This document shows, piece by piece, positions 29,484-63,283 of a stretch of 63,283 bases of DNA. A model generated the notes under the pieces. That model ran no database searches and was not told where the DNA came from. It saw only the letters and a program-made list of their open reading frames with translations. Numbering within the stretch: the first letter of the stretch is position 1; each line of letters opens with the position of its first letter. The DNA is from Candidatus Abzuiibacterium crystallinum. GTDB taxonomy: Bacteria; Omnitrophota; Omnitrophia; Omnitrophales; Abzuiibacteriaceae. Position numbers and translations under genes: made by a program. Location of the stretch: the NCBI GenBank assembly GCA_002787155.1, contig PCVY01000022.1:29336-92618 (forward strand). The letters are read 5' to 3'.

Positions 29484-29491
29484 ATGTCCCC

Positions 29492-30073: not shown

Positions 30074-30080
30074 ATTCACC

Positions 30081-31885: not shown

Positions 31886-31888
31886 GAC

Positions 31889-33571
31889 TTATGCCGCTTC
31901 GCTTTGGGGATGAAAATCGCTTGAGCGTCCCGGTTCGCTGTATTCATAAGGCCCGCGATAAACCGTTGGGGTCGTTTCAAAGTTCCCATGCCCGGGCGGT
32001 GAAGGTGCCTGCCATTCCAGGGTGTTTGATTCCCAAGGATTTTTGCCCACTTTTTCACCCCATTTTAAGCTTTTGACAAAATTAACCAATAAAATTAATT
32101 GTGACACACCCAGCACAAAAGCGCTTAAGGTAATGAAAACATTGATGGGCTGCAAGTGCTGCAAATGCGTGTATTGCATGGGATCATAAATACGGCGCAT
32201 GTGCCCGCCGATTCCTAAAATGTGCATCGGGAAGAAGGTGCAATTAAAAGCGATGAAGGTGAGCGCAAAATGAATTTTACCCAACGGTTCATTTAATTTT
32301 CGGCCAAACATTTTAGGAAACCAATAATAAACGCCGGCAAAAGCAGCAAACATACTGCCGCCAAATAAAACATAGTGAATATGTCCCACGATAAAATAAG
32401 TATCGTGAAAATACATATCCACCGCGGTGGAAGCCATAAAAATACCGCTCAAACCTCCGATTACAAACATGGAAACAAATGCAATCGCATTCAACATAGC
32501 TGAAGTAAATCGTAAAGTACCCCGCCACATGGTACCGAGCCAATTAAATGTTTTGATAGCCGACGGTACGGCGATTAACATGGTGGATAACATGAAAGTG
32601 GTCCCTACGGTAGGATTCATCCCGCTTTGAAACATGTGATGACCCCAGACAATGAAACCTAAAAAGGCAATGCCCATGATGGCATAGACCATGGCATGAT
32701 AACCAAAAATAGGTTTGCGGGAAAATGTGGAAATGACGTCTGAGACAATCCCCATCCCTGGTAAAATCATAATGTAAACAGCCGGATGTGAATAAAACCA
32801 AAACAAGTGCTGCCACAAAAGTACGTGTCCGCCCCCTTCTGATAGAAAGAAATGCGTCCCCATGGTTCGATCAAACAAAAGCATAATCATGGCTGACGTC
32901 AAAACAGGTGTGGCAAGAAGCGTGATGACAGACGTAATAAAAATAGCCCAAACCGTCATGGGCATTCTAAATAAACCCATGCCGGGTGCGCGCATATTGA
33001 GAATGGTGGTTAAATAGTTGATTGCACCCATGAGAGATGATGCCCCAACCATAATCACAGCCACCACCCAAAGCGTTTGCCCCGTTCCTTCTATAGCACT
33101 TAAGGGCGGATAAGCCGTCCAGCCGGTTGCGGCTGCGCCGCTCTGAACAAAGAATCCTGAGAGCGCCACAATGGCAGATGGCCAGAAAAACCAATAAGAA
33201 AGCATGTTGAGCCTCGGAAAAGCCATGTCAGGCGCACCGATTTGAAGCGGTACCACAAAGTTGCCAAACGCTCCCACCAACAAAGGAATGATGGCAAAGA
33301 AAATCATCACAGAAGCATGCATGGTAAAAAGCGCATTGTAAAACTCGGGTAACATGATGCCGCCGACCATCATGCTTTCAGGAAATACTTGTCCCAGTAC
33401 CGGCATGGGTTTCCCCGGATAGGCTAATTGCCATCTGAGAAGCAGTGCTAAGGCGCCGCCGACCAAAAAGAAAAATAAAGTCGTAAACAAAAATTGAATC
33501 CCGATGGTTTTGTGATCGACAGAGAAAATATATTTCCTCAAAAAACTTTGTTTTTGATGTGATTCACTCAT
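31889..33571 (-). CDS. ctaD: Cytochrome c oxidase subunit I, A2-type (YS motif)
   Basis: Canonical HCO subunit I blocks (WFYSHPAVYIMILPGMG, HHMF, GGLSGIFMAS…HDTYFIVGHIHYV). YSHPAVY replaces the GHPEVY glutamate. ATG at 33571 overlaps the CoxII stop (ATGA). Confidence 0.95.
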   Translation of the reverse strand: MSESHQKQSFLRKYIFSVDHKTIGIQFLFTTLFFFLVGGALALLLRWQLAYPGKPMPVLGQVFPESMMVGGIMLPEFYNALFTMHASVMIFFAIIPLLVGAFGNFVVPLQIGAPDMAFPRLNMLSYWFFWPSAIVALSGFFVQSGAAATGWTAYPPLSAIEGTGQTLWVVAVIMVGASSLMGAINYLTTILNMRAPGMGLFRMPMTVWAIFITSVITLLATPVLTSAMIMLLFDRTMGTHFFLSEGGGHVLLWQHLFWFYSHPAVYIMILPGMGIVSDVISTFSRKPIFGYHAMVYAIMGIAFLGFIVWGHHMFQSGMNPTVGTTFMLSTMLIAVPSAIKTFNWLGTMWRGTLRFTSAMLNAIAFVSMFVIGGLSGIFMASTAVDMYFHDTYFIVGHIHYVLFGGSMFAAFAGVYYWFPKMFGRKLNEPLGKIHFALTFIAFNCTFFPMHILGIGGHMRRIYDPMQYTHLQHLQPINVFITLSAFVLGVSQLILLVNFVKSLKWGEKVGKNPWESNTLEWQAPSPPGHGNFETTPTVYRGPYEYSEPGRSSDFHPQSEAA

Positions 33572-35052
33572 CCGATTCCTCCCTGCGCCGCTTCGCGGAG
33601 CCATGCGTCAAATCCTTCTTGCGAATGAATGGAAAGAAAACCACGCATTCGGTAATGTCCTAATCCGCAAAATTCGGCACAAGCAATTTCATATTGGCCT
33701 GTCCGTGTCGCTTCAAACCAAACGTCAATGGCCATTCCGGGTACCACATCTTGTTTTAATCTTACTTCCGGCAAAAAGAAACTGTGGATGACAGGATGTT
33801 TATTATCTTTTGCGATAGAGGTGAGACGAACACGAACCGGCTTACCGACCGGGATGTGTAATTGATTAATGGTTTTGATGTCATCAGAAGTTCCAAATTT
33901 TCCGTCTTTTCCGGTATAACGTACGTTCCACGCAAATTGTTCTGCTTGAATTTCAATCGGAATAGCGCCTGCCGGCGGTTGACCTTTGATTTCAGACCAT
34001 AACTTTTGACTCGCTATGGTGAGAAAAACTAAAATCAGCGCCGGGATAACGGTCCATATAATTTCAAGCCGATTATTGCCGTGCGTGTAAGCTGCCTTAG
34101 CACCGGGACGATCTCGATATTTAAATAAAAAAATCAAGAGCGCTACTTGGACAGCTATAAAAACGATGCTGGTAATCCACAGAATCACGTAAAATAAGCG
34201 GTCTAGTTTACCGCCGTAAGTTGAAATGTTTTCTGGTAACCACCAGCCTGTTTTAGCGCGGGGTTTATTTAAAGCGGCGGAATCATCAAAACGGTTAATG
34301 GGTTTAGGCGCTTCCGCGGTAATCTTAAGACCGCTTGCTTCATCCACAATTTCACTAGAACTAAACTGAAAGTCCGCGTTTACAGAACCGCCGGGGACGG
34401 CGATCTTTTGCGTTTGAGTGCCATACACTTCATGCCAAGCCTCAATCGTATATTCGCCGGGCGGTAAATCTTTGATTTCAAAAGAACCGTCATCACCCGT
34501 CACAGCATAAAATGGATGAGAAACCACGCCAATATAACCATTCATCCAAGGATGCACGTCACATTTCATTTTGATCATGATTTCCGGATTGGAGAATGTT
34601 TTTTCAAGTTTCATTCCCTGAAGCGGCATGCCTAAATTAAATTCGGCATTATTTTTTGCCACCGCATGGACATTGTGAAGGGTGGCATCGCTATTAAGGA
34701 TTTGCAGTTTTTGTCCCGCTTGCATGCCCTGCACATGCGGATAGTACCAACAACCCTCTTGATCTAAAACAGCAGGCGTTTGAGGAGCGGGAAAAGCTTG
34801 ACCGCCCAATCCCTCTTTCACATACACAAAAACATTTTTTAATGTTTGGTTTGAATTGACCACGACACGTTCGTTCAGGAAATCCGTCTTATGCATCCCG
34901 CTGCAAACCGGATCAGCCGCCATATCAATTTTCTGATTCGGAGGCGCTTCGCCGCTAAACAAAGCTTTGCCCGTTACCGTTCCTGCTTGAACGAAAGCAG
35001 GAAACAGATACAGACAAACCAAACCTGCGGTAATGACTTTTCTTAAATTCAT
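33568..35052 (-). CDS. ctaC: Cytochrome c oxidase subunit II with an N-terminal cupredoxin (type-1 Cu) module fused in front
   Basis: The C-terminal half has two TM helices plus the CuA site CAEFCGLGHYRM. The N-terminal ~235 residues are a paralogue of the neighbouring free cupredoxin, with LHNVH…CDVHPWM. Confidence 0.9.
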   Translation of the reverse strand: MNLRKVITAGLVCLYLFPAFVQAGTVTGKALFSGEAPPNQKIDMAADPVCSGMHKTDFLNERVVVNSNQTLKNVFVYVKEGLGGQAFPAPQTPAVLDQEGCWYYPHVQGMQAGQKLQILNSDATLHNVHAVAKNNAEFNLGMPLQGMKLEKTFSNPEIMIKMKCDVHPWMNGYIGVVSHPFYAVTGDDGSFEIKDLPPGEYTIEAWHEVYGTQTQKIAVPGGSVNADFQFSSSEIVDEASGLKITAEAPKPINRFDDSAALNKPRAKTGWWLPENISTYGGKLDRLFYVILWITSIVFIAVQVALLIFLFKYRDRPGAKAAYTHGNNRLEIIWTVIPALILVFLTIASQKLWSEIKGQPPAGAIPIEIQAEQFAWNVRYTGKDGKFGTSDDIKTINQLHIPVGKPVRVRLTSIAKDNKHPVIHSFFLPEVRLKQDVVPGMAIDVWFEATRTGQYEIACAEFCGLGHYRMRGFLSIHSQEGFDAWLREAAQGGIG

Positions 35053-35058
35053 ATATTC

Positions 35059-35748
35059 TCAGACTCCAAACTCAAAACTGACTTTGATCTGCTCTCCCTC
35101 GGCAACACTCACGGATTGTGTTTGAGTGCCATAAGTTTCGTGCCAGGCCTCAATCACGTAATCACCGGCCGGTATACTTTCAATTGAAAAATTCCCCTGA
35201 TTGTCCGTCACCGAAAAATAAGGATGCGGCAATACACCGATATAAGCGCTCATCCAAGGATGTACGTCGCATTTCATTTTGACCATAATTTCAGGCGAAT
35301 CAAACTGCTTGAATAATTTCATACCCTGGATCGGCATGCCGAGGTTGAATTGTTTGCTTTTTTCCGCCAGTGAATGAACGTTGTGAAGCGTGTTATCACT
35401 ATTCATGATCTGTATTTTTTGGCCCACTTGCGCACCGACGACATGCGGTGTGTACATGCAGCCTTTTTGATCAAACTCGATTGATTCTTTCGGTGTTTCA
35501 AACGTTTTGCCTTCCAAGCCTTCTTTCACATACACAAACACGTTCCGGAGCGTGCCGTTATCATTCACGATAACCGACTGTGAATAAACGGGCTCTGAAT
35601 GGGCTGCCGCACAAGTAGGATCGGCAGACATGGATAATGGTTCTGGAGCCGGAGCGGTTCCTTTAAATTGAACGGTGCCGCTGATACCGTTTGCATAAGC
35701 ACTCGAAGTAACGAGTAAAGCGATGAGAGATAAAATTAACTTTTTCAT
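35059..35748 (-). CDS. Secreted cupredoxin (amicyanin/plastocyanin-like type-1 Cu site) combined with a carboxypeptidase-regulatory-like beta-sandwich
   Basis: Signal peptide ending SSAYA/NG. Candidate ligands are H in LHNVH and C-x2-H-x2-M in CDVHPWM. The C-terminus GNFSIESIPAGDYVIEAWHE is beta-sandwich-like. Confidence 0.75.
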   Translation of the reverse strand: MKKLILSLIALLVTSSAYANGISGTVQFKGTAPAPEPLSMSADPTCAAAHSEPVYSQSVIVNDNGTLRNVFVYVKEGLEGKTFETPKESIEFDQKGCMYTPHVVGAQVGQKIQIMNSDNTLHNVHSLAEKSKQFNLGMPIQGMKLFKQFDSPEIMVKMKCDVHPWMSAYIGVLPHPYFSVTDNQGNFSIESIPAGDYVIEAWHETYGTQTQSVSVAEGEQIKVSFEFGV

Positions 35749-35784
35749 GTTCGTTCCTTTTTTGTTAAAGATTGATCGTTCCTA

Positions 35785-38640
35785 TTAATTCGTCTTGGCC
35801 GCCAAATTGGCGCTTTTGATGGCTTCTGCTTGTTCTTCCGTGAGCTGCCACATATAATCCCTTAAAGCATGAATTTGTTTAATCCAGTCACCGTCCAAAA
35901 CATCAGCGATTGGAGTCGTGCCATCCGCAAAAAATGTCGGCATCATGGTGCCTTCTTGCAATCTTTGGGGTTCTTTTAACCACTCAACTACCCACTGGGG
36001 TTTAAGACGATCTTTGGAAATGACAAGATCCGGCGCTAAGAAAGAAGCGGTCAACCCAGGGGATTCCGCGGATTGATGGCATTGAATACATTTGAATTGC
36101 ATAAACAATTGCCGTCCCGCTGTTAAGATGTCCTGATCGGTTGAAATATCGCTAGGCGCAAACGAAACTTTCTGGTGTTCCAGAAGCGCAAAATATTGTA
36201 TCAATGCATTCAATTCATCTTCGCTTAAACCAAAACCCGGCATATGATATTTTAACCAAGGACGAATCGTGCTTGGCGCATGCAGAAACTCAAAGAGCCA
36301 GTCCTCCTGGACCTTCGCACCTTCCCCGTCCAGGACAGGCGGCGCATTGCCAAGGTCTTCAAATAAAGACCGGACACGCCCTTCAACACCGTCTAAAGTA
36401 TGACATCCCTGACAATTATATTTGTTTACCAGAAAACGTCCTGCTTCAATGGCCTGCTCATCAAGATTCAATTGTCTCTGCATTTCAAGCGGAATATCCT
36501 CCGTTCGCAAACTCAACAGAAACGTGGTCAATGCTTCTGCTTGTTCATCCGTCAAACCAAAATCCGGCATTCTTAATTTGTCCTGGTAAGGCTTCACGCG
36601 GCCTTTGTCGTAACTTCTGGGATGTTTGAGTTTCTGAAAGAACCAGGCTTGGCGCGAATGCGGGATTTCAACAAAACCAAAATCTAATTTGGTAATTTCT
36701 TTTTGCCCTTCTTTGGTCAGCTCGGTGCCGATTCGTTTCGCGTTCTCAAACCCCTGAATATCGTGACACCCAAAACATCCCTGCCGATTAATCATCTCCT
36801 TGCCGACAAATTGCAGCTTGGCATCCGCATCCATTGCGGATAGCGTTTCTTCCGCTTCCGACTCACGCATCCTGCCGATTAAAAATGACATAGCCAATTG
36901 ATCAACATCCGCTTCTTTTACTTCGGGAATGCCGGTACTTTCAAACGCTTCATTACGATCTTGGAGTAAGTAAGCCGTGATATCGGCTGCTTGCTGATTA
37001 CTTAATCTGAGATTAGGCATGGGCGTCTCAGGCGAATAATGCTTGGGATCCTTCAGCCAAGTGTAAAGCCAATCCGCGCTGACTTTACTGCCCAAGCCCG
37101 TCAATTCAGGACCGCGGTCATTGACGTGAACACCTTCGGCAGAGTGACAACCTAAGCAGCCGATTTCCTTAATGAGCGCTTGACCGGTTTCCGGATTGCC
37201 TTTCGGCGGCGGCGACTGGAGCGGAACTTCTCCCGAATGAATCATTAAATACCTGGAAATGCCTTTGATCCCGGCGTTTGAGAGAGTTTTGCTTTCCTGA
37301 TCACTTGTGTTTTCAAGATGAAAGACAGAAGGCATGCGGGTAGAAGCGCGGAATTTCTTGGGCGCTTGAAGCCAGCGTATCATCCAATCAGAATCTACTT
37401 TACTCTTCACATTTAATAAACTTGGACCTACTTTCCATGCACCTTCTCCGCCAGAGGCAGAGCCGCCTTCGGCGGAAAATCCCTTGACGGTGTGACAGGC
37501 AAAACAGCCAAATTCTCTGGCCAATTGACGGCCGTGATTAATCTTGGGCGCTTCCGGAATATCAACAACCCCTTGATGACATTTGGTGCATGAAGCTTCC
37601 GTAAATTGAAGCGGCAGCATTTTAGCTTCCCATTTTTCAAGTTCATGCCAATGATATTCTTTCTTCCATTCCTCCGCTTGCACTTCATCGCGCGGGGTGT
37701 GGGCCGCCCAAGTAAATGACAAGGATTGCCCGCTCCCGCTGTGGCAAACCGTGCAACCGATTTTTTCAAGCGGGTGCGGCGAATTCGATGCCAAAAAAAG
37801 ATCAAGGCTGGGATGTGTCCGAAAAGGCTGTGGGGCATCTTCAAATCCTTCTTGATCGATGGCCAAATGGCAAGTTGTGCAGCGATCAATTTTATTTGAT
37901 TTGGCAAAAAAGAAATCGTCGTTCAAATCTTCCAGAACAATTTGTTGGATTTGGAGTGTGGGCACCATAAAATCCAGCATCGGGGCATTTAATAATTCCT
38001 TCACGACGGAAGGTTTAAGTTTTTCAAGTTTCTTTTGGTAACGCTCCTGGTCGCGCAATTTTGCACTGATTTTATCAGTTAATGTTTTCTGCTCTGCCTC
38101 CAGATCACGAATCGCCTGATCAATGTCTTCTTGTTTCTTCTCCAAGCGCTCCATCTCTTCCTTCGCGGTTTCAAGCGACACGGCTGTTTTCTCTAGTTTC
38201 TCTTGATATGCTTTCGCTTCTTTTTGCTCGCCTGCTTCATTGTCTTCTTCAAAGAAAAATTTGTACGAATCATAATATTGTTTTAAATCTTGATAGCGGT
38301 TTTTGGCACTAATAAGCGGTAATTGAATGGATTCTTTTTCTTTTACCAATTGATTGTATTGATCTTGCTTTTGTTTGAAATCAAAATTAGCTTCCTTGAG
38401 TTCCTCTTTTAGGCGCTGCAGCTGCTCCATGTTGACGTTTTTGATTATTTCGTCCAGTTTTTCCTGAGTTTTCTCACGCTCCAATTTAACAAATTCACGC
38501 TGATAATATTTCCATTCCCGATCATGATCCTGAAACAGCATGAGTAATAAAGTAACCAAGAGTCCGACGCTTGCGATCGCAAACCAAAACGTCGTTTTCT
38601 CGACACTATAAAGTTTGTTGTCGTTTTTTGAAGGAGGCAT
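35785..38640 (-). CDS. Membrane-anchored 951-aa multi-domain c-type cytochrome (8 CXXCH) with an N-terminal coiled coil
   Basis: One N-terminal TM, ~200 residues of K/E-rich heptad-like sequence, then CTTCH, CTVCH, CTKCH, CFACH, CLGCH, CFGCH, CQGCH, CIQCH. Translationally coupled to the subunit-IV-like gene. Confidence 0.8.
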   Translation of the reverse strand: MPPSKNDNKLYSVEKTTFWFAIASVGLLVTLLLMLFQDHDREWKYYQREFVKLEREKTQEKLDEIIKNVNMEQLQRLKEELKEANFDFKQKQDQYNQLVKEKESIQLPLISAKNRYQDLKQYYDSYKFFFEEDNEAGEQKEAKAYQEKLEKTAVSLETAKEEMERLEKKQEDIDQAIRDLEAEQKTLTDKISAKLRDQERYQKKLEKLKPSVVKELLNAPMLDFMVPTLQIQQIVLEDLNDDFFFAKSNKIDRCTTCHLAIDQEGFEDAPQPFRTHPSLDLFLASNSPHPLEKIGCTVCHSGSGQSLSFTWAAHTPRDEVQAEEWKKEYHWHELEKWEAKMLPLQFTEASCTKCHQGVVDIPEAPKINHGRQLAREFGCFACHTVKGFSAEGGSASGGEGAWKVGPSLLNVKSKVDSDWMIRWLQAPKKFRASTRMPSVFHLENTSDQESKTLSNAGIKGISRYLMIHSGEVPLQSPPPKGNPETGQALIKEIGCLGCHSAEGVHVNDRGPELTGLGSKVSADWLYTWLKDPKHYSPETPMPNLRLSNQQAADITAYLLQDRNEAFESTGIPEVKEADVDQLAMSFLIGRMRESEAEETLSAMDADAKLQFVGKEMINRQGCFGCHDIQGFENAKRIGTELTKEGQKEITKLDFGFVEIPHSRQAWFFQKLKHPRSYDKGRVKPYQDKLRMPDFGLTDEQAEALTTFLLSLRTEDIPLEMQRQLNLDEQAIEAGRFLVNKYNCQGCHTLDGVEGRVRSLFEDLGNAPPVLDGEGAKVQEDWLFEFLHAPSTIRPWLKYHMPGFGLSEDELNALIQYFALLEHQKVSFAPSDISTDQDILTAGRQLFMQFKCIQCHQSAESPGLTASFLAPDLVISKDRLKPQWVVEWLKEPQRLQEGTMMPTFFADGTTPIADVLDGDWIKQIHALRDYMWQLTEEQAEAIKSANLAAKTN

Positions 38641-38641
38641 G

Positions 38642-39724
38642 TTAGATATTGAAGAAAAATTCGGGTATGGCGACCAAATACTTTAAGTTAAACGCCCAAC
38701 GCAAATACATTTTAATAGGAACGGCAATCACCATTAACAAAAGAAAGGCGGCGACCGCATAACGCACGGCACCCATTTCTTGGAATGCTTTTTTACAAAA
38801 AGTTTTCGCAGCCATAGCTGGCGGTATTAACAAATAAGCCAAAACCAGCAGAATACCGGGCAGTTCCCTTAGGTACCATTGACTCGGCAGTCCCCATCCC
38901 AGCCATTTGATAAAAACAAACTCGGATAAGTTGACGTTGAGAAGCGGAACCACTTTATGCACATTCCATACTTCAAACGGTCCAAAAAAGTTCCAGTTAG
39001 GCCCTCTTAAGAATGTCCCCAAAACAATCAAGACAATCCAAAGCATCCAAAAACAAAACAAGAATCCGCTGATCCAAACCCGCCTTTGTTGATACGAGTA
39101 ATAACCTGATCCTTTGGGACTCCGGTCCAGGTAAGGAATCGCGCACAAACCAATGATAATTAAAGTAGGCAGTAAGACGCCGGCAATCCAAGGATCAAAA
39201 TAAACCAAGAGTTCCTGCAGGCCTAAAAAATACCAGGGGGCCTTCGAAGGGTTAGGCGAAATAGACGGGTTAGCCGGATCTTCCAAAGGCGCTTTAAGCG
39301 CCAGCGACCAAACCACGAGCATAATCGAATAAAAAAGCGCAACGACAAACTCAATAAAAATGAGATAAGGAAACACGAGAACTTTTTGTTCGGATTCTTC
39401 TTTCTCAAGAGGGCCCTTGCCTTCCGCCATGCGCATATCGTTGACCGTCGCCTTACGCATGGCATACCACGTAAAATAAAGCATAATAAAAAGCATCATG
39501 ACGATCGGAACATTGTCAGGTGTGGTAATGATCATTTTAAAATGCTCATCCGTTAAACCGAAAATAAAAAATGCGACCACCAGAATGCCAAGAGGCCCCG
39601 CTACTTTCGGAGCAGTCAGTTGCCCGGGAAATGAGAGGAAAAGAAAAAGGAGTCCCGTTCCCAACGTAAACATCATGACCGGAGATGAAATTTGATTAAA
39701 GAAATGTTTGATCAATTCAGCCAT
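38642..39724 (-). CDS. Subunit-IV-like (C-terminal half of cytochrome b) membrane protein, extended
   Basis: KAPWYFLGLQELL (PEWY-type Qo motif) and about 8 TM segments. ATG at 39724 lies 5 nt after the cyt b6 stop; the track TTG is at 39733. Confidence 0.8.
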   Translation of the reverse strand: MAELIKHFFNQISSPVMMFTLGTGLLFLFLSFPGQLTAPKVAGPLGILVVAFFIFGLTDEHFKMIITTPDNVPIVMMLFIMLYFTWYAMRKATVNDMRMAEGKGPLEKEESEQKVLVFPYLIFIEFVVALFYSIMLVVWSLALKAPLEDPANPSISPNPSKAPWYFLGLQELLVYFDPWIAGVLLPTLIIIGLCAIPYLDRSPKGSGYYSYQQRRVWISGFLFCFWMLWIVLIVLGTFLRGPNWNFFGPFEVWNVHKVVPLLNVNLSEFVFIKWLGWGLPSQWYLRELPGILLVLAYLLIPPAMAAKTFCKKAFQEMGAVRYAVAAFLLLMVIAVPIKMYLRWAFNLKYLVAIPEFFFNI

Positions 39725-39729
39725 AGAGA

Positions 39730-40536
39730 TCAAAGCGGCCCGCTAATGCCGCCATCCTTTCTGATACGCCAAAAGTGAACCGCCATTAAGATCACCACAA
39801 CAACGGGAATGGCCACGCAGTGCAAAATATAAAAACGAAGCAGCGTAGCTGCCCCGACAAACCGGCCGCCTAAAAGCGCAAAACGCGCATCATCCCCAGC
39901 ATGAATGAGTTGAATATCGCCAATCGAAAGTAAAGAGGCGCCCGGGCCTTCATAGCCTAGGAAAGGTGTGGCACGCGCCATGTTGGAACCAACGGTAATG
40001 GCCCAAATCGCCAATTGATCCCACGGAAGCAGGTACCCCGTGAAACTGAGCAACATCGTTAAAACCAAAAGAAGCACGCCGATCACCCAGTTGAATTCGC
40101 GAGGCGGTTTGTAAGAGCCTGTCATAAAAACACGCAGCATGTGCAGCCAAACCGTGATCACCATCGCGTGAGCGCCCCACCGGTGGAGTTCGCGCATAAT
40201 CCCAAAAGGCACGTGTTCGCGGAGTGCCACAATATCGGTATACGCATATTCAACCGTCGGCCGGTAGTAGAACATCAATAGAATGCCGCTCACCACTAAC
40301 GTAAGAAAAACAAAGAAAGAAAGCCCGCCGGCGCACCAAGTAAATCCAAAACGAGCACCTGATTTTCTGACCTTAACGGGATGCAGGTGAAAGAAAACGT
40401 TGGTTAAAACAGTGAGCGCACGGTCCCTGTCGTCGGTTTTATAACCGTGACGAAAAATTGATTTCCAAATTTGACCTTGTGTGACTGATTTTTTGATCTC
40501 TTCAAAATTAATTTTCGGGAGTTCAAATTTTTTCAT
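39730..40536 (-). CDS. Cytochrome b6-type subunit (N-terminal half of cytochrome b)
   Basis: FFHLHPVKV…, [28 protein letters not shown] at 40536 with GAGGAA upstream is preferred over the TTG at 40548. Confidence 0.9.
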
Positions 40537-40554
40537 GGGGTTCCTCAAATCAAA

Positions 40555-41169
40555 TTAAAGTTTCAAAAATGCTTCGGAATTACTCAACTCGCCTTTTTCC
40601 TGATGAAAAGATTTGCTTTTATCAATCACAATTTGTCCGTCATCAGCTAAACCGATTTTCAAACGTTCCAAAGGTCTCGGCGCCGGTCCTTCAAAGTTAA
40701 TGCCGGATTTATAAAAACCGCTCCCGTGACACGGGCATTTAAATTTTTGCTCGCTTTCAAGCCAATTGGGCGTACAGCCTAAATGGGTACAAACCGCCAA
40801 AAGCGCATAAATGCCTTCAACCGTTCTAACGACCCACACGCCATACTTTCCTTTCCAACGCAAATCCACCACACCCACTTCATAATCATCGGGATAACCG
40901 ACTTTAAAAGTACTTTTGGGTTCAAAAAGCACATTGGGGAACATAAAACGCAGCACAAAAGAAAGGGCCCCCGCGGTAGCGGCAACAAAAGTGAGCCACG
41001 CAATGGTAAACCACGAAAGAAATTGCCGGCGGCCAGGGACAGAGATTTCCGGCGCAGGTCTTTTCAGTGCTGGTTCGGCTGTTGCGGCGGGTGCAGCGGG
41101 TTTCGGCGCGTCAGCAGATGGTTTGGGTGTCGGTGACGGATCAGGCTTCGGCGCTATCGGTTCATTCAT
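40555..41169 (-). CDS. Rieske [2Fe-2S] protein with a Pro/Ala-rich N-terminal extension
   Basis: PGRRQFLSW (Tat-like), one TM, cluster boxes CTHLGC and CPCHGS. Confidence 0.9.
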   Translation of the reverse strand: MNEPIAPKPDPSPTPKPSADAPKPAAPAATAEPALKRPAPEISVPGRRQFLSWFTIAWLTFVAATAGALSFVLRFMFPNVLFEPKSTFKVGYPDDYEVGVVDLRWKGKYGVWVVRTVEGIYALLAVCTHLGCTPNWLESEQKFKCPCHGSGFYKSGINFEGPAPRPLERLKIGLADDGQIVIDKSKSFHQEKGELSNSEAFLKL

Positions 41170-55555: not shown

Positions 55556-58500
55556 TTAAGCGGCGATTGCAACCTGAACTCTATTCTTCAGATCGTTTAC
55601 CAATTCACGCGCTAATCCAATCACGCTCAAGAAACGCTCAACACCATCCACCACGCGCAAGGTTGCATCCATCGTCAATTTCTCCAACACATACCGGCCA
55701 TAAAGGCGGTCGGCCGGAAGCGCGATTACCTGGGCACTCGAAGCACGTAATTCGCTTCGGAGGATATGATTTAAATCAGCAATAGAACGCGCCACGCGAA
55801 CACGCTTTGCTGGCGGCATATCTGCCATCAGTGCTTGTACCTGAATGGCTTCTGCTTCGTTACCTACTAATGCAACTAAGGGATGTTCGTCAGCGATTGC
55901 TTGAGCCACCGGGAGCAAGGTAGCGCCTAATTCGCGGTTAAATTCGGGTAAAAACACCAAAGCTTCACGGCTGGTCACATTTTCAGTCAGTGCCGATTCC
56001 GCCGCAGAAGACCCGTTGACATTTTGACCGGAAATGACATTTGCAGCATCCGGTGATTGGCTGCCGGCAGCGACGCTAAGCGCAGCCAAGATGATTTGTG
56101 TTTTACTTTTCAAATCAAGCGCCGCAACTGCGTGTTTAACTGCTTCTGCGCTTTGTAAAATATTTCTTAATGTACGCGGCGCATAAGCGCTTTTTACGTC
56201 CAATGTTTCAAAATCAAGACGCAGCTCTGAACGTTCCCGAGGTGCCGACTTCTCAGTTTGCGCATTTTGCTGCAGCAGCGGCTCATAAAGTGTCTCGGGT
56301 TGTTTTGGTTTTAAAACCAATTGACTGGCTAGAGCTTCTAGACGAGAAGCTATGTGATCTAAATCCTGTAACCCGGGTTCTATCACTCGAATACCATGTG
56401 CAATTTTGGTGTGTAAAATAATTTGACCTATTTCGCCAAAAAGCTTGTTGAACCGTTCTAACCGGTCATCCCCCGCATTGATAAAATTGACGAGGATTTG
56501 TGCCGCATCAAAATGCGACCTAAGTTCACGCAATGAACGGCCTTTCGGCATTTCAAATTGCCGTTCAATCGAGTCAAGTGCTGCCAAGCCTTGGCTTAAA
56601 ATAAGATCAACTTGATCAACAGTTTCGGTCTTCACTTCAAGCGATTGCACAAATTGAATAATTTGTTCGACTGACTTGGATGCCCTTTGAATTGGCGTGC
56701 GAACACTTTCAATGCCGGTCAAATGCGGTAACTGTAAACGAATCTCTTGTAAGACTCTCGACAGCGTATGCAAATCTTTAACTGTAATCAATTCGTCGGA
56801 ATCTTTGCCGACCGCACGGATAATGAGATGAATAGCCTGATCCAAATGGCGAATCACTGGTTTTAAGGACCGATTGGCCGGCAACGCTTGTTTTGTTTGG
56901 GCCTCTTCCAGCAATACTTTAATCAAAGCCAGCTTGGCTTTCACAAAATTAAGCGTGGCAATCGATGGACGTGCCTTGGGTCTCGTAACCGATGTTTCCG
57001 GTTGTGTTTCTATTTGAGTACGTAATTCCGCTTTCGGACTTTCTTGCGCCAAAATAGCTTCCCCTTCTAGCACGATTTCCCCAGAATCTGGTTGATCTCC
57101 ATCTTCTTCCAGCACCACTTTAAAAATACCGGATGCTGCGTTGACGGGTGCCGCTACCAAATGAAAATCTCCAAAGAACGACCCTTGTAAAAAACGGAAA
57201 TTAGATTCGCCTGAACGCTTAATCCGAGGCAGAACATCTTGCAAATGAGAAATCAATTGATCAGAAACCGCTTGGTCTGATGCGCCGCGAAAAGCGCCGC
57301 GGTTAATAAAATTGATCCGGAGTTTCACCGCACCGTTCGGAATGCTGAGACGGTCTAATTCGGCAAATACCGATTCCACGGTCGGAAAATGCAAAAGAAT
57401 ATTTCTTTTAAGCCGCTCACTTTGCCATTTGTCGACGGACTCTTGACGGTCTTCCCACGGCAGCCACATCTCATACAAAGACTTTGTCTCAAGCGGATTA
57501 ATTTGAGGTTCGTCAGGCACCAAAGTGCGCCGCACGTGGATAAGAAGCGCGGCTGTCAAACCTGCTAACAAGCGATTGGTTTTCTCATCCTGGCTCTGTG
57601 TACCGAATGCTACTTTCGGAGACGTGTTCGATTGCCCCCAAAAGATTTCTCCCACCGGGGTGATTAAATGATAAACACCCTCTTCGTTCACCAGCGTATA
57701 GGTCGTTGGTATTGCCTGACCAAGACCGGCATTGTAATTTTCCCAATTTTCAAAGTAAGTAAAATCTCCGCGGCCGGTAAAATAATTAATCATGCGATCA
57801 CGCATGGTGTCCATTACAAGTGTTTTGGCATCATCCGACATCGGCATGCGCTGCTCTTTCAATTGAAAGTAAGGAATGATCCCTTCATCGGTCTTCAGAT
57901 GTGTAAGATATTCTGCGTAAGACCAGTTTTGCAAATGTTTCTTCTTGATAGCCGCAAAAACCTGCAGCCAATAAAATGCAAAGTCTAAGGCATCGTCAAA
58001 AGAATTAATGAAAAGATGAAGCGAATATTCAAATTGAACCAAATTAAAACCCGGATATTTTGCCTGGAAATCTTGGACGCTCTTCACACCTTCTTTTTCG
58101 GCTAAACCCCGCATGATTAAATCCATGGTTGCCTTTACTTTAGAATGGCCTTTGGGATGAACGCCTGAGAGGCCCCCGAAATGGGCAATGGCTTGCCCCA
58201 TCCCGGCATTCATGCGCGCATCACGATAGAAAATCTTACTGAAGTCGCCATACGGATCGAGTGTTAATTTATATTCGATAATCGGATAAGACATATCATC
58301 GCCTAAATAGAGTTCACCTGCCTGCAAGAGACTGACGCGGTCCACATCTAAATCGAAATTAAGAATCAAAAGGTCAGGATGATTGCGGGAATAGTCAACA
58401 ATGTTCGCATCCGGATGCGAAAGTGCTTTGGCATCCTTGCGGGACGGGTCCGCAAGTCCCTGACGCGCCCAAGGATCTCCCTGACTTTTTAGGAGTGTGA

Positions 58501-61500
58501 TATCTGGACCAAAAAGTTCTCTGAAAAATTCAACGTATTCGGCGGCAGAACCGGCATTTAAATTAAAGGCAACTTTCATATGGGAAACTTTGAGCGTTTG
58601 TGCCAGATTGCCATATTTTGCTCTCAAAGAATCAAGGTACATTTGGCGGGCACGATCTCTCGTCGTTTGCGAATCATCTAACGATCCTTCTTGATCGGCT
58701 TTTTCATACTCGGCGGATAAAATCTGAGCTTTCACTGCTTGCAGCATTTCCCCGTAAAGCGTGATACCACCGATATTTGGTTTCGCACCATTGGTACCGA
58801 CTTCCACATGGCTCCGGGTCACATAAAGACCGCCCTGCGCCCCTAGATTGCCGATACTCTTGTAAAGTTCGCCGGACACCGCCACACCAAGATCAATCAC
58901 ATTCACACCCGTGTCACGTAAACCTGCAATCAAAGCCGCTTTAAACGATTGGGTTGAAGGACCGTTGTCACCGGCAATTACAAAGGTATCGCCTGTTTTT
59001 AACCCAACTTTTTGATCGTGACGGCGTGAATAGAATTCAACGGTTCCAAGCGCGCGGCCTATCCAACGCAGAAGGGTTTCATCCACTTCTTGCGGGAAAT
59101 TTTGATCATCGGCACCGTCAAAACCTCTGAAATCGTATTCTTTGACAAATTTATTTAAGATTTGCTCCAAACTTTTACCGTGCTTGGACTGCCACGTCAA
59201 AATGCTTTCGTCTTTGACCACGGCGCGCAATTCTGATCGTGAGGTTGGAGAGTTCACTGAAAGATCTAACAAATCATGGATGACGATAAACTGATCCAAC
59301 TCTGTCACAGCTCGATCCAACAATTCAAGCTGCACAAGTTCTGCCGCTGTATGAGGAACGCGGCTATGATTTTCACGAATGCTTTTCAATGTTCCTTGAA
59401 CAGCATTAATGGTCCCCACTAATTCTTCAAAGTTTTGCCGCTCCACGATGGATATTCGATCGCGTCTTTTGGCAGCACCGTCACGCGATTGCCTGATGAG
59501 TTGATTGGTATCCACGGTTGAAGTCGTGCGAATGCTCAGCCACTTTTGTATCCATTCCTTAAAATCAGAAGAAGGCTGACTAGCAGGACTTGAAAATAAC
59601 CGGATAATCTCTAAAGAGAGTAAGCGAAGTCGGTTATGTTTAGCCATTAAGCCAAGAAAGATACGGTCAATCACAATGGTTTCAGAATCTGCTTGTGAAA
59701 TTGGTGAGGTTGCTCCTGCGGCAACTTCGGTCGTTTTAATATTCTGAAGTTCCGAGGGGATATTTTCTAAATGACCATTGCTAACTGATCGGCGGCTGGC
59801 AATTCTTAATGCCTGCTGATAGAAGCTCGGCAATGCTGCGACAGCTTCTTCAATTAATTTGTCTTTGGCATTTGGGATTTGTTCTACGTCCAGATTTGAT
59901 TTGGCTAGTCTCAAACCCTTGCCATAAATTTGTATCGTTTTCTCAATGCCGTTTAAGAATGCTTGGTATGATTTCTTCTTGGGGTGATTCTTTGGTAAGG
60001 TACTGACAAATTGTTTCCACCGAACTAATAATTGAAGCCGGCGTTGAATCTCCTGCTGGGCTGGTCGAACGCCCACTTCTTCAACTAAACTTTGGACATC
60101 TTCCGGTGTCATCGAAAGACCCTTTGCCTTCAAGAGAGCTGCTTCTGCTTTAGCGAAAGGCGTGTCTCCACTCACATATTTTTCGTGCCATTCTCGAATA
60201 CGCTGATTGGTCACGCGATCCGCCGCCGCTGAGGTGGGAATATTTTCCTTAACGGACATCTCCAGAATTTCATGAACGGTATCACCGATTTGTGCGATCT
60301 TTTCATCAAGTGTCAGTCCTTTTGTGTCATCTTTTAACAGATCCCATCCGGCCGCAATCAGTCCGCCTGCATTTAAAATGTAATCCGGAACATATAAAAT
60401 ATTTTCTTGGTGAAGCCGGTCGCCGTCCGCTTCTCTAGCCAGCTGATTATTAGCAGCACCGGCAATCAACTGAAATCCGGCTGCTTTTAAACGGGGAATC
60501 GTTTTTTCATTCAAAATAGCGCCGACAGCATTAGGACTAAAAACTTCGGCTTCTTTCACATCGTAAACATCATCCGGATGATTCAAAATGACAAGTCTGC
60601 CTGCTGCAATCTCTGGAGCATATTTTTTTCTGAGCTGTTCAAGCAAAGCTTGATTCACGTCCGCGAGATAAACTTTCTTCGCGCGCTCACCTAAGTCATC
60701 ACTACGCATCCATTTTTCAAGCAATTCACCCCCTACGCTGCCCGCACCCTGACTGGCAATGGTGATATTTTGCAAACCGCCGGTTCCAAACTTTTGGCGC
60801 ACACCGCCGCGAATACCGGCCATCACACCTCTAGCCGTATAAGCTGCGGGGATTCTGCCGCCATGATCAATTAATTCATCCCCGGTTCCGACCATCGTCC
60901 AAGGGGCTACAGCAGCCATGGCTGCTACATCTTGATCCGAAGTATTCATGTCAACAGCAGTCAAAATAATTTGCAATTGATTAAGCGCGCGCGCCACATA
61001 CTGTTGGATACGCTGCTTTCGTTCTTTGTTAGCGGGATCTTTCGGGTCAAAGCCTGCTTGGATCACGACTTTACCGCCCGCCCATTCCACGCCTGAGCCG
61101 GCTGACTTATGTCCCATACCTTCGCCTAAGCGCTCATTATCGATTAAAGCATCTACTGGGGTTGGGTAATTTTTAATCCGTGTACCGCCCAAAGCCCAGC
61201 TGCCGTGAAAAGCCTTTCGAAACGCATCAATGAACGCCCATTCTTCTGTCATACCTTCGGCTTCTACTACTTCCTGACGTGCTTGCCAAACGCCATACGC
61301 CAATTTAAATTGCGCGATCGACGGATGAGCGATCGAGGGATAAAGACTCACATATGCTTTCGTATCCGTTTCAAACGGAACGGGGATTTCGTAGAGCGCC
61401 ACATGATCATGCCAATATTCACGTGCCGGCGGCGGCAAAAGTTCTTTAATAGTATATTTTAAAACTTCCGCATCCGGCATCCCGGCAATGTGAACTTCAT

Positions 61501-63232
61501 ATAAACCCGGTGTGTCGGTTTCAATTTCATCAACACCTGATTTAGAAGCGCGAAGTTCCGATTGAACGCCTGCGCGTACTGATGTGTCTAATGCTGACAA
61601 TTCTGTAATTGGCAGGCCATTTTGCCCCTCAAACTCATTCAGCGCTCCTAAAGCTTGTTGGGCCTCTAGACGGCGCGCTTCAATGTCATCACCATTATGA
61701 AAATCTCCGTCCCGCCGTTCAAAACGAATCGCGTTAAGTGCCCGCTGTGCGTTTTGGGCAGCTTGGAGCAAAGGCAGCCGTTTGGTTTCAAGGGATGCTT
61801 TCATGCTTAATGCAACTTGTTTTAAGAAAAGCGCAGCCCGCTTTAACTCAATTTGATCAGGCCGTTCGAGGGAAATCGTGAATCCCGCCCGACGCAAGGC
61901 GTCTTGAAACATGAGTTCGCGCTGGTGACCGTCAAAAAACTTTTCCCGAGTGATTTCGCCGCGTTTAAATTCCGGAATCCGTGACTCAATTTGGTGAGGG
62001 ATAAAACCAAGCCTTAAATATTCGTTGGCCGCTTCGGCAACTTTTGAATCAGAAATGCCCGTATAGCCAATGAGCAAAATCGTTCTTCCGATAAATAATT
62101 CCTCTTTTGGAAACTCCTCGCGCGCCGCTTGAAGACCTTCGAGTGCAAGCGTATTTAAGAAACGGAGCGTGACGAGCATGCGGTTTCCAATACGCTCTCC
62201 GACAGAGCGCTTTAAGTACGCCGCATTGGTTTGTTGAGGTGTAAAACCGCTCAGCCATTCGGTGAATTGCTCAAGCGTGAATTTATCTCTCAGAGATTCC
62301 GGCGTCAGGCCGTAGAGTGTATGCCAATTCATGTGCTTGTCTGCCAAATTCAGGCGCAAAAAATCAGCGATTTGTCTTAATTCTTCGGTCGTGAGAATGT
62401 TCGCTAATTGAGTAGGGTTCAACTCGGCAGGGGTCAGGGATCGGGGATCAGCCCTTCGACTATGCTCAGGACTGATGCTGAGCGAAGTCGAAGCATCAGA
62501 AATTAATTGTTTTTCCTGTTCCCTGTCCCCCGACACCTGTTCCCTTTTTTGCCGCAGCTCAGAGTGGGACTTGAGATCGAAAATCTGCGTTAGCGCTTGA
62601 CGTGTCACTGCAAACATCCTTTGATAAGGTTGTTCGCGCGTTTGTTTTGCACTTTGGGCGAGTGCTTTATTTAAAACGTGTTTTTGATCGACGGCCAGTG
62701 AACCGCTCCTGCGCAAAATTCGGATTTGTTCCAAGGCAGCCATACTGGCATTTGCGTTCAAATCTTTGACAGCAGGCGGCGCATTGAGTTCAAGAATAGC
62801 CTCGCTGCCAAATCTGGCTATCAGCTTATCTTGTTGAATAAGTCCCGTTAATTGACGAACCGCTTCTTCCCGCACTACTCTCATGTGAACCGCTTGAAGA
62901 AAAACGCTTAAACCTCTATCAGAAATAGTGGTCAAATTCATTTTTTTCGGTAAATCGGGTACCGTTTTTGTTTGATTGTCTACAACCTGAGAACGTCTAA
63001 AAGAAGTGCCTTCGATAACGTGGTAAGGATTCGGATGCCGCCACAACTCTTGGACTAATAATAAGGCTTCACGCCTGACCAGCTTAGATTGATCAGTGCC
63101 GCTTAGCTGCCAGATAGATTGATTCGGGTCTGCAAGCCATTTAGCGGTTTCAATGATCGGTTTGATCCGAGGGTCATTTTCAATATCCTTTGTTCCTGCT
63201 ATCCAATCCCGTAAACGTGTTGTTGCAATCAA
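55556..63232 (-). CDS. Giant (at least 2558 aa) hypothetical multidomain protein: Leu/Phe/Val-dehydrogenase-like domain, phosphohexomutase-like domain, long helical regions, and a C-terminal module shared with the 2019-aa ORF; 5' end probably outside the window
   Basis: Uninterrupted 7.7-kb ORF. The track start is a TTG without an SD, and my reading finds no in-frame stop between it and the right window edge. The first ATG is ~98 codons in. Domain motifs are given in the findings. Confidence 0.85.
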   Translation of the reverse strand: MIATTRLRDWIAGTKDIENDPRIKPIIETAKWLADPNQSIWQLSGTDQSKLVRREALLLVQELWRHPNPYHVIEGTSFRRSQVVDNQTKTVPDLPKKMNLTTISDRGLSVFLQAVHMRVVREEAVRQLTGLIQQDKLIARFGSEAILELNAPPAVKDLNANASMAALEQIRILRRSGSLAVDQKHVLNKALAQSAKQTREQPYQRMFAVTRQALTQIFDLKSHSELRQKREQVSGDREQEKQLISDASTSLSISPEHSRRADPRSLTPAELNPTQLANILTTEELRQIADFLRLNLADKHMNWHTLYGLTPESLRDKFTLEQFTEWLSGFTPQQTNAAYLKRSVGERIGNRMLVTLRFLNTLALEGLQAAREEFPKEELFIGRTILLIGYTGISDSKVAEAANEYLRLGFIPHQIESRIPEFKRGEITREKFFDGHQRELMFQDALRRAGFTISLERPDQIELKRAALFLKQVALSMKASLETKRLPLLQAAQNAQRALNAIRFERRDGDFHNGDDIEARRLEAQQALGALNEFEGQNGLPITELSALDTSVRAGVQSELRASKSGVDEIETDTPGLYEVHIAGMPDAEVLKYTIKELLPPPAREYWHDHVALYEIPVPFETDTKAYVSLYPSIAHPSIAQFKLAYGVWQARQEVVEAEGMTEEWAFIDAFRKAFHGSWALGGTRIKNYPTPVDALIDNERLGEGMGHKSAGSGVEWAGGKVVIQAGFDPKDPANKERKQRIQQYVARALNQLQIILTAVDMNTSDQDVAAMAAVAPWTMVGTGDELIDHGGRIPAAYTARGVMAGIRGGVRQKFGTGGLQNITIASQGAGSVGGELLEKWMRSDDLGERAKKVYLADVNQALLEQLRKKYAPEIAAGRLVILNHPDDVYDVKEAEVFSPNAVGAILNEKTIPRLKAAGFQLIAGAANNQLAREADGDRLHQENILYVPDYILNAGGLIAAGWDLLKDDTKGLTLDEKIAQIGDTVHEILEMSVKENIPTSAAADRVTNQRIREWHEKYVSGDTPFAKAEAALLKAKGLSMTPEDVQSLVEEVGVRPAQQEIQRRLQLLVRWKQFVSTLPKNHPKKKSYQAFLNGIEKTIQIYGKGLRLAKSNLDVEQIPNAKDKLIEEAVAALPSFYQQALRIASRRSVSNGHLENIPSELQNIKTTEVAAGATSPISQADSETIVIDRIFLGLMAKHNRLRLLSLEIIRLFSSPASQPSSDFKEWIQKWLSIRTTSTVDTNQLIRQSRDGAAKRRDRISIVERQNFEELVGTINAVQGTLKSIRENHSRVPHTAAELVQLELLDRAVTELDQFIVIHDLLDLSVNSPTSRSELRAVVKDESILTWQSKHGKSLEQILNKFVKEYDFRGFDGADDQNFPQEVDETLLRWIGRALGTVEFYSRRHDQKVGLKTGDTFVIAGDNGPSTQSFKAALIAGLRDTGVNVIDLGVAVSGELYKSIGNLGAQGGLYVTRSHVEVGTNGAKPNIGGITLYGEMLQAVKAQILSAEYEKADQEGSLDDSQTTRDRARQMYLDSLRAKYGNLAQTLKVSHMKVAFNLNAGSAAEYVEFFRELFGPDITLLKSQGDPWARQGLADPSRKDAKALSHPDANIVDYSRNHPDLLILNFDLDVDRVSLLQAGELYLGDDMSYPIIEYKLTLDPYGDFSKIFYRDARMNAGMGQAIAHFGGLSGVHPKGHSKVKATMDLIMRGLAEKEGVKSVQDFQAKYPGFNLVQFEYSLHLFINSFDDALDFAFYWLQVFAAIKKKHLQNWSYAEYLTHLKTDEGIIPYFQLKEQRMPMSDDAKTLVMDTMRDRMINYFTGRGDFTYFENWENYNAGLGQAIPTTYTLVNEEGVYHLITPVGEIFWGQSNTSPKVAFGTQSQDEKTNRLLAGLTAALLIHVRRTLVPDEPQINPLETKSLYEMWLPWEDRQESVDKWQSERLKRNILLHFPTVESVFAELDRLSIPNGAVKLRINFINRGAFRGASDQAVSDQLISHLQDVLPRIKRSGESNFRFLQGSFFGDFHLVAAPVNAASGIFKVVLEEDGDQPDSGEIVLEGEAILAQESPKAELRTQIETQPETSVTRPKARPSIATLNFVKAKLALIKVLLEEAQTKQALPANRSLKPVIRHLDQAIHLIIRAVGKDSDELITVKDLHTLSRVLQEIRLQLPHLTGIESVRTPIQRASKSVEQIIQFVQSLEVKTETVDQVDLILSQGLAALDSIERQFEMPKGRSLRELRSHFDAAQILVNFINAGDDRLERFNKLFGEIGQIILHTKIAHGIRVIEPGLQDLDHIASRLEALASQLVLKPKQPETLYEPLLQQNAQTEKSAPRERSELRLDFETLDVKSAYAPRTLRNILQSAEAVKHAVAALDLKSKTQIILAALSVAAGSQSPDAANVISGQNVNGSSAAESALTENVTSREALVFLPEFNRELGATLLPVAQAIADEHPLVALVGNEAEAIQVQALMADMPPAKRVRVARSIADLNHILRSELRASSAQVIALPADRLYGRYVLEKLTMDATLRVVDGVERFLSVIGLARELVNDLKNRVQVAIAA

Positions 63233-63283
63233 TGATTGTAAAATGTGAATAACGGTTTCGCTTTCTGTCCAGGCTCCGCCTTC

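Follow-up and report, generated by a model that had tools for sequence, protein, structure and literature searches.

Large multi-enzyme genes are a hallmark of the bacterial phylum Omnitrophota. Giant open reading frames (ORFs) occur across the phylum, which also comprises aerobic classes with cytochrome c oxidase (Seymour et al., PMC10066038). West-Roberts et al. (10.1101/2023.11.21.568195) described PGM/PMM, TIM, PGI, FBPase and aldolase-like domains in the Archaeovorins of Omnitrophota, suspected cleavage of the products from the presence of C39 and S8 domains and stated that the cleavage points were unknown. Nielsen & Lui 2026 (10.64898/2026.06.07.730766) distinguish three architectures, one of them 'multi-enzyme metabolic clusters', and count PGM/PMM Pfams among the most frequent. 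Both recent surveys explicitly leave open whether the product stays one chain or is cut. The 63,283-nucleotide stretch of Candidatus Abzuiibacterium crystallinum analyzed here (contig PCVY01000022.1, positions 29,336 to 92,618; hereafter the window) carries on its minus strand the larger, C-terminal part of a gene of this kind, the product of which, P0005, has 3627 amino acids (aa). Like the giants described in the two surveys, it comes from Omnitrophota and has unrelated metabolic enzymes tiling one chain, PGM/PMM being among the commonest, along with transmembrane (TM) segments, large unannotated stretches and poor overall sequence conservation. It differs from them in its size of 3.6 kAA (thousand aa), which is far under the published cut-offs of 10 kAA and 30 kAA, in its two recognizable enzymes, with no HEAT, dockerin, GT, C39 or S8 domains found, and in its host, which is an aerobe. 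The protein itself is ordinary for the phylum. Its chain can with high confidence be described as a series of modules separated by a genome-specific pentapeptide delimiter, RSELR, which is previously unremarked, statistically very strong and general across related giants. A recurrent delimiter or linker motif is mentioned neither in the texts of the two surveys nor in the literature covered by a wider search, the reach of which did not include Kizina et al. 2022 on the V. archaeovorus giant.

P0005, a cluster member encoded on a 108-kb JGI contig, contains 12 copies of SELR and one of AELR (13 in total), plus the variants PELR, IELR and VELR. In an unbiased 4-mer scan of this protein SELR was the most over-represented word, with 12 copies observed and 0.14 expected. 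A second, paralogous giant harbors five further [SA]ELR copies (positions 48034-48048, 47236-47250, 46807-46821, 42832-42846 and 42439-42453). The part of P0005 upstream of the window, the part within it and the second giant contain six, six and five copies, respectively, against shuffle means of 0.11-0.23, and none of 20000 shuffles reached the observed numbers. The background frequency, determined from ORFs totalling 721,055 aa at 80 unrelated loci (those found in a genome-contig scan with the neighboring YchF), is 0.054 per 1000 aa with a maximum of two copies per ORF, compared to about 3.6 per 1000 aa in P0005, an enrichment of about 65-fold. Among all six-frame ORFs of at least 80 aa in the window only the two giants contain [SA]ELR, and the seven genes upstream of the true start of the P0005 gene contain none. 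The logo of 18 copies shows R (12), K (2), H (2) or Q (2) in the first position and S (16) or A (2) in the second, followed by E-L-R, with unconserved flanks. The copies and the units between them are arranged as follows, residues being numbered on the translation of 55556-63283 (minus strand), in which residue n corresponds to P0005 residue n+1052.

55556..63283, minus strand: giant gene, C-terminal 2575 codons, with the stop codon at 55556-55558; the remaining 5' 1052 codons lie outside the window
62552..62566, minus strand: HSELR, residues 240-244 (P0005 1292-1296)
61550..61564, minus strand: QSELR, residues 574-578 (P0005 1626-1630), N-terminal edge of the leucine dehydrogenase (LeuDH) unit
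59240..61549, minus strand: LeuDH unit, residues 579-1348, the Pfam-matched part (682-1029) at 60197..61240
59225..59239, minus strand: RSELR, residues 1349-1353 (P0005 2401-2405), N-terminal edge of the mutase unit
57347..59224, minus strand: phosphohexomutase unit, confident fold, residues 1354-1979, four domains with the loops TRSH, DLDVDR (metal), EYSLH and QSNTSP
57035..57346, minus strand: tail after the mutase fold, about 105 residues, no homologue, low model confidence
57020..57034, minus strand: KAELR, residues 2084-2088 (P0005 3136-3140), model pLDDT about 30
56234..57019, minus strand: unit without recognized function, about 262 residues, no homologue and no internal repeat, one RELR at residue 2252
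56219..56233, minus strand: RSELR, residues 2351-2355, aligned with an RSELR of the second giant
55760..56218, minus strand: penultimate unit, about 153 aa, C-terminal half common to the second giant
55745..55759, minus strand: RSELR, residues 2509-2513, aligned with the last RSELR of the second giant
55559..55744, minus strand: last unit, 62 aa, common to the second giant and ending with the stop codon
42244..48303, minus strand: second giant gene, paralogous, 2019 aa, 7 kb away, with the same leader and YSDVP, five [SA]ELR and the same two C-terminal units

The motif copies coincide with the edges of conserved units. Homology blocks shared with five other giants begin at P0005 residues 2400-2402, where the motif occupies 2401-2405, and the LeuDH homology to other giants begins at 1621-1672, with the motif at 1627-1630 (BLAST). 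All 17 xELR copies lie outside the two conserved units. In the structural model of the mutase the upstream RSELR is located in a stretch with a pLDDT below 50, and the first confident strand starts from the very next residue.

Both units delimited in this way were identified by domain searches. The LeuDH unit matches the two Pfam domains of the ELFV dehydrogenases above their gathering thresholds, the dimerization/substrate domain ELFV_dehydrog_N at residues 682-790 (PF02812, E value 1.8e-6, 28.2 bits vs 25.3) and the NAD(P)-binding domain ELFV_dehydrog at residues 816-1029 (PF00208, E value 5e-8, 33.4 bits vs 23.4). Among solved structures, phmmer retrieved the leucine dehydrogenase 8gxd (E value 3.5e-44 over 334 residues). 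K-x-A, GGK, A-x-D, GxGxxG and PD..N.GG are aligned with 8gxd (in the alignment with 8gxd and 6acf as ghKsA/tyKnA, waGGKvv/lgGGKav, tAvDmnT/tAeDvnT and GAGSVG/GVGNVA), so that the catalytic Lys in the G-G-x-K loop, the substrate-carboxylate Lys, the catalytic Asp and the GxGxxG dinucleotide fold all have their counterparts. The unit comprises a giant-specific N-extension, a leucine/phenylalanine-dehydrogenase-like domain and a C-extension of about 320 aa, the first 170 aa or so of which are conserved in other giants. An equivalog-level match was not reached for this unit: the best NCBIfam model, Trp_DH_ScyB, scored 169.9 bits against a cut-off of 600, and GDH models about 25 bits. Because the NCBIfam scores are far below every equivalog cut-off, the substrate specificity of either unit is not assignable.

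In the mutase unit, PGM_PMM_I was found above gathering at residues 1422-1525 (E value 1e-10), whereas PGM_PMM_II was weak (15.3 vs 29.3 for gathering). The region matches the solved P. aeruginosa PMM/PGM 3bkq with an E value of 2.6e-6, and its TRSH falls on the phosphoserine loop (TGSH). A model was built by AlphaFold2 with 13 homologues (mean pLDDT 78). Foldseek aligned it to 1pcj, 3bkq and 9du5 with an E value of 2e-26, target-normalized TM-scores of 0.82-0.85 and 16-19% identity. Because it superposes on PMM/PGM with these scores, the unit is regarded as a complete four-domain fold. D-L-D-x-D-R, G-H-S-K, E-x-S-x-H and S-N-T-S-x-K are invariant among 14 mutase homologues. E-Y-S-L-H may correspond to the canonical sugar-binding loop G-E-x-S-G-H and S-N-T-S-x-K to the phosphate-binding loop R-x-S-x-T-x-P, a correspondence judged by eye in which the leading Gly and Arg are replaced; the phosphate-type loop reads Q-S-N-T-S-P here and W-S-N-T-S in most relatives. 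Judged from these alignments, both units have the fold of the stand-alone enzymes, the leucine/phenylalanine/tryptophan dehydrogenases of the ELFV family and the PMM/PGM-type alpha-D-phosphohexomutases, and appear to keep their catalytic signatures. They differ from the stand-alone enzymes in being embedded in a 3627-aa chain with giant-specific N- or C-extensions, and the mutase unit represents a divergent subfamily, given its identity to solved structures, that is mostly located inside giants.

An earlier note on the window, made from its sequence, had recognized an amino-acid-dehydrogenase-like domain, a complete phosphohexomutase-like domain and the presence of both enzyme folds in one chain, and the searches above agree with it in all three respects. 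Its remark that no characterized protein combines the two folds stands insofar as no second protein with both units was found among the best 150 matches. The uniqueness that it implied does not, because PGM/PMM-bearing multi-enzyme giants have already been published for the phylum. The RSELR delimiter, which is the protein's most informative feature, escaped the note. The note had also listed a shared C-terminal module, which was recovered in both giants with statistical support: the last 140 aa or so of the two proteins align with a Smith-Waterman score of 87 compared to 30 +/- 5.3 for shuffled sequences, a value reached by none of 3000 shuffles, and masking the motif leaves a score of 65 vs 28 +/- 4.8. 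As the last two RSELR copies align between both giants, the shared region consists of two consecutive motif-bounded units. A hidden Markov model (HMM) of this module matched, among 157 proteins fetched, only the two giants of this genome, so it is not a family-wide tail. A further suggestion, that about 550 helical residues are repeat-like, was not confirmed, as self-BLAST of residues 2020-2450, 1-650 and 1030-1350 revealed no internal repeat. A Pfam scan of the 2019-aa second giant gave no hit; a weak S1/OB-like stretch is present at its residues 1570-1730 or thereabouts (NCBIfam, far below cut-offs).

Delimiters are not confined to this genome. An exhaustive HMMER search with residues 682-1881 against 1.84 billion representative proteins yielded 4001 hits, of which the best 150 were examined. 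Among the matches listed, relatives of the mutase unit with 42-74% identity are located in many large proteins of 858-5831 aa, and the LeuDH unit recurs in giants of 1634-6752 aa. Each of the two modules is thus found in many other giants paired with other enzymes, and the other domains of these giants include PGI, hexokinase, ACP, alanine dehydrogenase, response regulators, PEPCK, TIM, a phosphoglycerate-mutase-type phosphatase and PLP enzymes. In the 4-mer scan each of the relatives proved to have a strongly enriched short motif of its own, namely RSEA/RSEV in P0012 (13 copies vs 0.24 expected), RSET/RSEM in P0110, RNEL/ELRN in P0019, SSSP in P0045 (11 vs 0.075 expected), AMLT in P0016 and GAMH in P0021. 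P0005, P0045 and P0110 are all labeled Omnitrophota and differ in their motifs.

In these relatives the motifs occupy equivalent positions on both sides of the mutase unit, where RSE[VA]R, RxELR, D.AM[LV], GAMH, DGG or SSP[A] is found. In ten giants the KEYD(I/F)RG anchor is preceded, at a distance of 26-43 residues, by the motif of the respective lineage, which in twelve giants also follows directly on the YPT.E.AL..L tail; P0027, a stand-alone homologue of 663 aa, ends where the giants carry the C-side motif. For the R.E.R class, the motif is present in a 25-residue segment on the N-terminal side in four of five proteins, with a chance expectation of 0.05-0.10 each. Nine of ten LeuDH units are likewise preceded by the motif of their lineage. 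All eight x-DGG-x-K/R copies of P0022 lie at domain edges, and a ninth DGG is the IDGGLIGG loop of TIM itself. The motif follows the identity of the mutase unit: at 74% it is RxELR, at 56-66% RSE[VA]R, and at 56% or below the motifs are unrelated; going by these identities, motif similarity declines as the mutase unit diverges.

Neighboring genes allow the same comparison in two other loci. Three large genes that lie side by side in L085 (1994, 2803 and 717 aa) contain two, eight and three copies of D.AM[LMI]T, and their ordinary neighbors none or one degenerate copy. In L086, P0012 carries 25 R[SA]E.R copies, and 17 neighboring genes have one between them. The three L085 giants (896-18029, JGI 3300021183) share the N-terminal domain ...NPL.FDFI...WVNLSPYE... 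and the tail GGIDLN...PVIINITP and are, by these shared ends, a second architectural family of delimiter-bearing giants. On a 2.8-kb contig labeled Candidatus Paceibacterota, P0010 (MDD3663449.1) has RAELR, RSEVR and RAESR around its mutase unit; either it is misbinned or the system reaches beyond Omnitrophota.

P0005 starts with a hydrophobic leader followed by YSDVP (VHSKLFSKQLRFIALFTALAFTSTSTIAYSDVPY...), and hydropathy shows five more TM-like segments within its first 900 residues or so. By counting membrane passes from hydropathy, the remaining 2700 or so residues, including both enzymes, may well lie on the cytoplasmic side. The N-terminus of the second giant (...AAFSVLFSFSVSTAFTYSDVPS...) resembles that of P0005 with a Smith-Waterman score of 51 compared to 23 +/- 4.6 for shuffles, one of 3000 of which reaches 51. 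At P0005 residues 412-436 and 883-906 the sequences RSELR-RAVLWALIGAGF... and RPELR-AELILWTGLLVG... represent delimiters directly ahead of TM helices, and at residues 1521-1545 or so of P0012, RAEVR-SSWIKLVFAAILCGAGC is a delimiter directly ahead of a lipoprotein-like signal. Units would seem to bring their own targeting signals, and delimiters in these positions hint at new N-termini.

Uniformity within a genome, an arbitrary choice of sequence from one genome to the next and a place in flexible segments at the edges of units are the features expected of a site that a co-evolving trans-acting factor reads. In the reading preferred here, the giant gene would be translated once, as a bacterial polyprotein tethered to the membrane through its N-terminal part. 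RSELR would be recognized by a trans-acting factor of the same genome, most probably an endopeptidase, and cutting at these sites would release separate proteins on the cytoplasmic side, among them a soluble amino-acid dehydrogenase and a sugar-phosphate mutase. The chance that RSELR is the cleavage site of such a putative polyprotein is considered to be about even. The wider proposal is more tentative. It holds that in Omnitrophota, and perhaps in neighboring lineages, some of the housekeeping metabolism takes the form of true polyproteins. A dedicated endopeptidase would cut them at a delimiter specific to the genome (RSELR here; RSE[AV]R, D.AMLT, SSSP[VIL], ASSLG and xDGGxK elsewhere) and would co-evolve with its sites, as in RNA viruses. 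For the DGG class, double-glycine processing of the C39 type would be a possible lead. Internal translation starts after the motifs were considered as well and dropped, since no start codons follow them.

Several observations weigh against cleavage. No peptidase domain was found in P0005 or the 63-kb window, nor in the second giant, P0022, P0019, P0020 or P0106, and an M48 peptidase is encoded near the L085 giants (2.4 kb downstream) but none in L086. Past the mutase fold P0005 lacks a delimiter where its relatives have one, and the next copy follows about 105 residues on. The last RSELR is located within the region conserved between both giants (55559..55984). In a model of the C-terminal 232 residues, built from a two-sequence alignment with a low mean pLDDT of 43, it stands at a helix end inside a putative beta-alpha-beta unit rather than in an obvious linker, and so may be an exception to the placement of delimiters in linkers. 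In the N-terminal third, several stretches between delimiters measure just 5-80 aa, an odd length for an independent protein. The second giant has the leader only and no further TM segment, and the same topology argument would therefore place most of it outside the cell. Apart from R.E.R, the delimiter classes were spotted by eye and then tested with loose patterns. In addition, a homologue search with the whole ORF, on a word index unreliable for such proteins, returned just the protein itself, the genome-contig scan contained no whole-protein orthologue, and a metagenome-contig scan with P0005 found the same organism only.

Some of these points suit the main rival, in which the chain is never cut and acts as a membrane-tethered multi-enzyme scaffold or metabolon, with RSELR as a defined hinge between modules or as a short linear motif that repeatedly docks a partner from the same genome (a chaperone, translocase, modifying enzyme or scaffold). 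The evidence on position and genome specificity is equally compatible with binding and with cutting. Neither the chain nor the window yielded a protease, and none turned up consistently near the relatives. The last RSELR may be part of a folded unit, and very short segments between motifs are more easily explained by arrays of docking sites than by separate proteins. Uncleaved multi-enzyme chains do exist, for example the fungal AROM protein. However, a pure hinge would require neither one uniform sequence per genome nor chemistries as different as RSELR, D.AMLT, SSSP and DGG.K at equivalent positions, the stand-alone homologue P0027 ends exactly at the motif position, and delimiters directly before a TM helix or a lipoprotein-like signal suggest new N-termini. 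An uncut scaffold is on balance rather unlikely.

A surface-exposed protein for predation or attachment of the Archaeovorin kind, exported via the leader and with its enzymes acting outside on substrates from prey, is improbable. Both giants have a signal-like leader, the second lacks any other TM segment, and the published view of Omnitrophota giants includes predicted extracellular PGM/PMM-like domains (10.1101/2023.11.21.568195), a prediction that West-Roberts et al. themselves doubt in the same paper. Against this, the cofactors and substrates required by an NAD(P)-dependent amino-acid dehydrogenase and by a sugar-phosphate mutase are cytoplasmic, and in P0005 the leader and the five TM-like segments would place the enzyme-bearing part on the cytoplasmic side. 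The domain scans detected no adhesin, dockerin, lectin or glycoside-hydrolase domains, and the window encodes full aerobic respiration, unlike the anaerobic predatory class. Substrates of T1SS/RTX, autotransporter or T9SS pathways were dropped from consideration because no such domains are present.

The motif might also be the translated trace of a nucleic-acid element, such as a fusion junction, a recombination site or a recoding signal, that has no function as a peptide. Its location at module junctions is where fusion scars would be expected. Over the 18 copies, however, Ser is encoded by five different codons and Leu and Arg by five to six each, and codons vary just as freely between the copies in L085 and L086, so that there is no conserved DNA or RNA sequence. 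As synonymous codons vary freely between copies, selection acts on the peptide rather than on DNA or RNA. A DNA repeat or a recoding signal was dropped for the same reason. No Rfam family matched anywhere in the window either, and a nucleic-acid origin of the motif is very improbable. The window was also found to lack tRNAs.

The minus-strand frame from 63283 to 55556 comprises 2575 sense codons plus the stop and has no stop codon before the window edge. This corresponds to P0005 residues 1053-3627, or 71% of the 3627 codons of the full gene. Extension to the 5' end via P0005 located the true start at a GTG, which an in-frame TAG precedes by three codons and GGGGAG by 12 nt. The TTG at 63232 is an internal codon, the true start lying 1052 codons further upstream relative to the frame of the window. 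The earlier note, which had described a single uninterrupted ORF, suspected that the gene continues past the window and doubted its annotated TTG start, was therefore right on these points. The frame is open at the window edge because assemblies break there: at P0005 residues 1040-1085 or so, four assemblies break within about 130 nt (window end 63283, L003 9952-10000 and the ends of L002 and L088), perhaps owing to strain variation or to a repeat elsewhere in the genome, and two read through. A neighboring gene led to the NCBI contig PFGO01000007.1 (assembly GCA_002781965.1), which has a run of 49 N immediately upstream of the last bases of the window and a 1039-aa 'gene' on the far side. The Logan contig ends 28 nt past the window, reading ...SELRGLMSGEGGAWTES, and another JGI contig stops about 100 nt deeper in the giant gene. 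P0005 and P0002, a partial member of the same 90%-identity cluster from another NCBI assembly, independently read through the break (...SLSQRA-KTSH-SELRGLMSG-EGGAWTESETV...). The cluster members PIQ87602.1 and PIW65726.1 bear the NCBI name 'Candidatus Omnitrophica bacterium'.

An identical sequence of 2572-2575 aa is present in the window contig, PFGO01000007.1, Logan SRR6240790 and the 108-kb JGI contig, that is, in at least four independent assemblies; a chimeric mis-join, against which the note had advised a check, is for this reason very unlikely. Although several assemblies break at one spot within the gene, the recovery of the same sequence from independent assemblies, two of which read through the break, and of the same architecture in dozens of proteins from unrelated samples makes it extremely improbable that the long ORF is an artefact of assembly or annotation, be it a chimeric join or separate genes whose stops were lost to sequencing errors. 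An artefact of stop-codon reassignment was considered and dropped, as the ORF is open under the standard code, and chance is excluded as the origin of an ORF this long.

Upstream of the true start, the 3' end (about 60 bp) of an RlmN-like gene is tandemly duplicated (L003 6330-6456, copies at 6330-6389 and 6397-6456), and an AT-rich intergenic region of about 500 bp precedes the giant gene (L003). The neighboring YchF showed at most 64% identity to genes on genome contigs of species representatives, spread over several phyla, with no syntenic orthologue. Elsewhere in the window, the region 13076..41169 has a density of respiratory genes that is unusual for an Omnitrophota contig, with many multi-haem cytochromes. 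Two bc-type complexes lie at 23513-25184 and 38642-41169, an aa3-type oxidase operon with CtaA/CtaB/SCO1 occupies 27678-35052, and 35785-38640 encodes a 951-aa cytochrome c fusion. These genes fit the aerobic classes with cytochrome c oxidase of Seymour et al. (PMC10066038). An IS110-family transposase (DEDD_Tnp_IS110 and Transposase_20; 11298..12332, plus strand) has cytochrome c maturation genes on one side and, on the other, a 701-aa ORF (13076..15181) without a Pfam hit.

According to one of the two surveys, missing knowledge of the cleavage points blocked further analysis of the giants. The delimiter provides a concrete and falsifiable map of where they would be divided, which can be derived for each genome by k-mer enrichment and makes the question of cleavage directly testable, including in existing metaproteomes. 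If the polyprotein reading is true, the delimiter is the cleavage map that earlier studies missed, and the giants become operon-like expression units; it would then also point to a class of polyprotein processing in bacteria in which protease specificity co-evolves. In an uncut chain, too, the delimiter offers a principled split into units for structure prediction and annotation.

Other examples of such processing are, to our knowledge, limited to viruses and a handful of secreted toxins. Bacterial parallels are the MARTX and gingipain/HagA polyproteins, large precursors that are cut between domains at simple recurring sites, to which the putative sites described here are similar. MARTX toxins are cut after Leu by an internal CPD, and gingipains cut after Arg/Lys. 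Unlike P0005, which has metabolic enzymes, no recognizable domains in common with them and no RTX repeats, these are secreted virulence factors with an identified protease. Unlike viral polyproteins, P0005, known from sequence, is encoded by a cellular bacterium and contains housekeeping enzymes, with no protease unit found in cis or nearby. Its architecture nevertheless resembles that of the picornavirus, flavivirus and nidovirus polyproteins, in which units are likewise joined in one chain, boundaries are marked by a short lineage-specific site and homologous units are bordered by differing sites.

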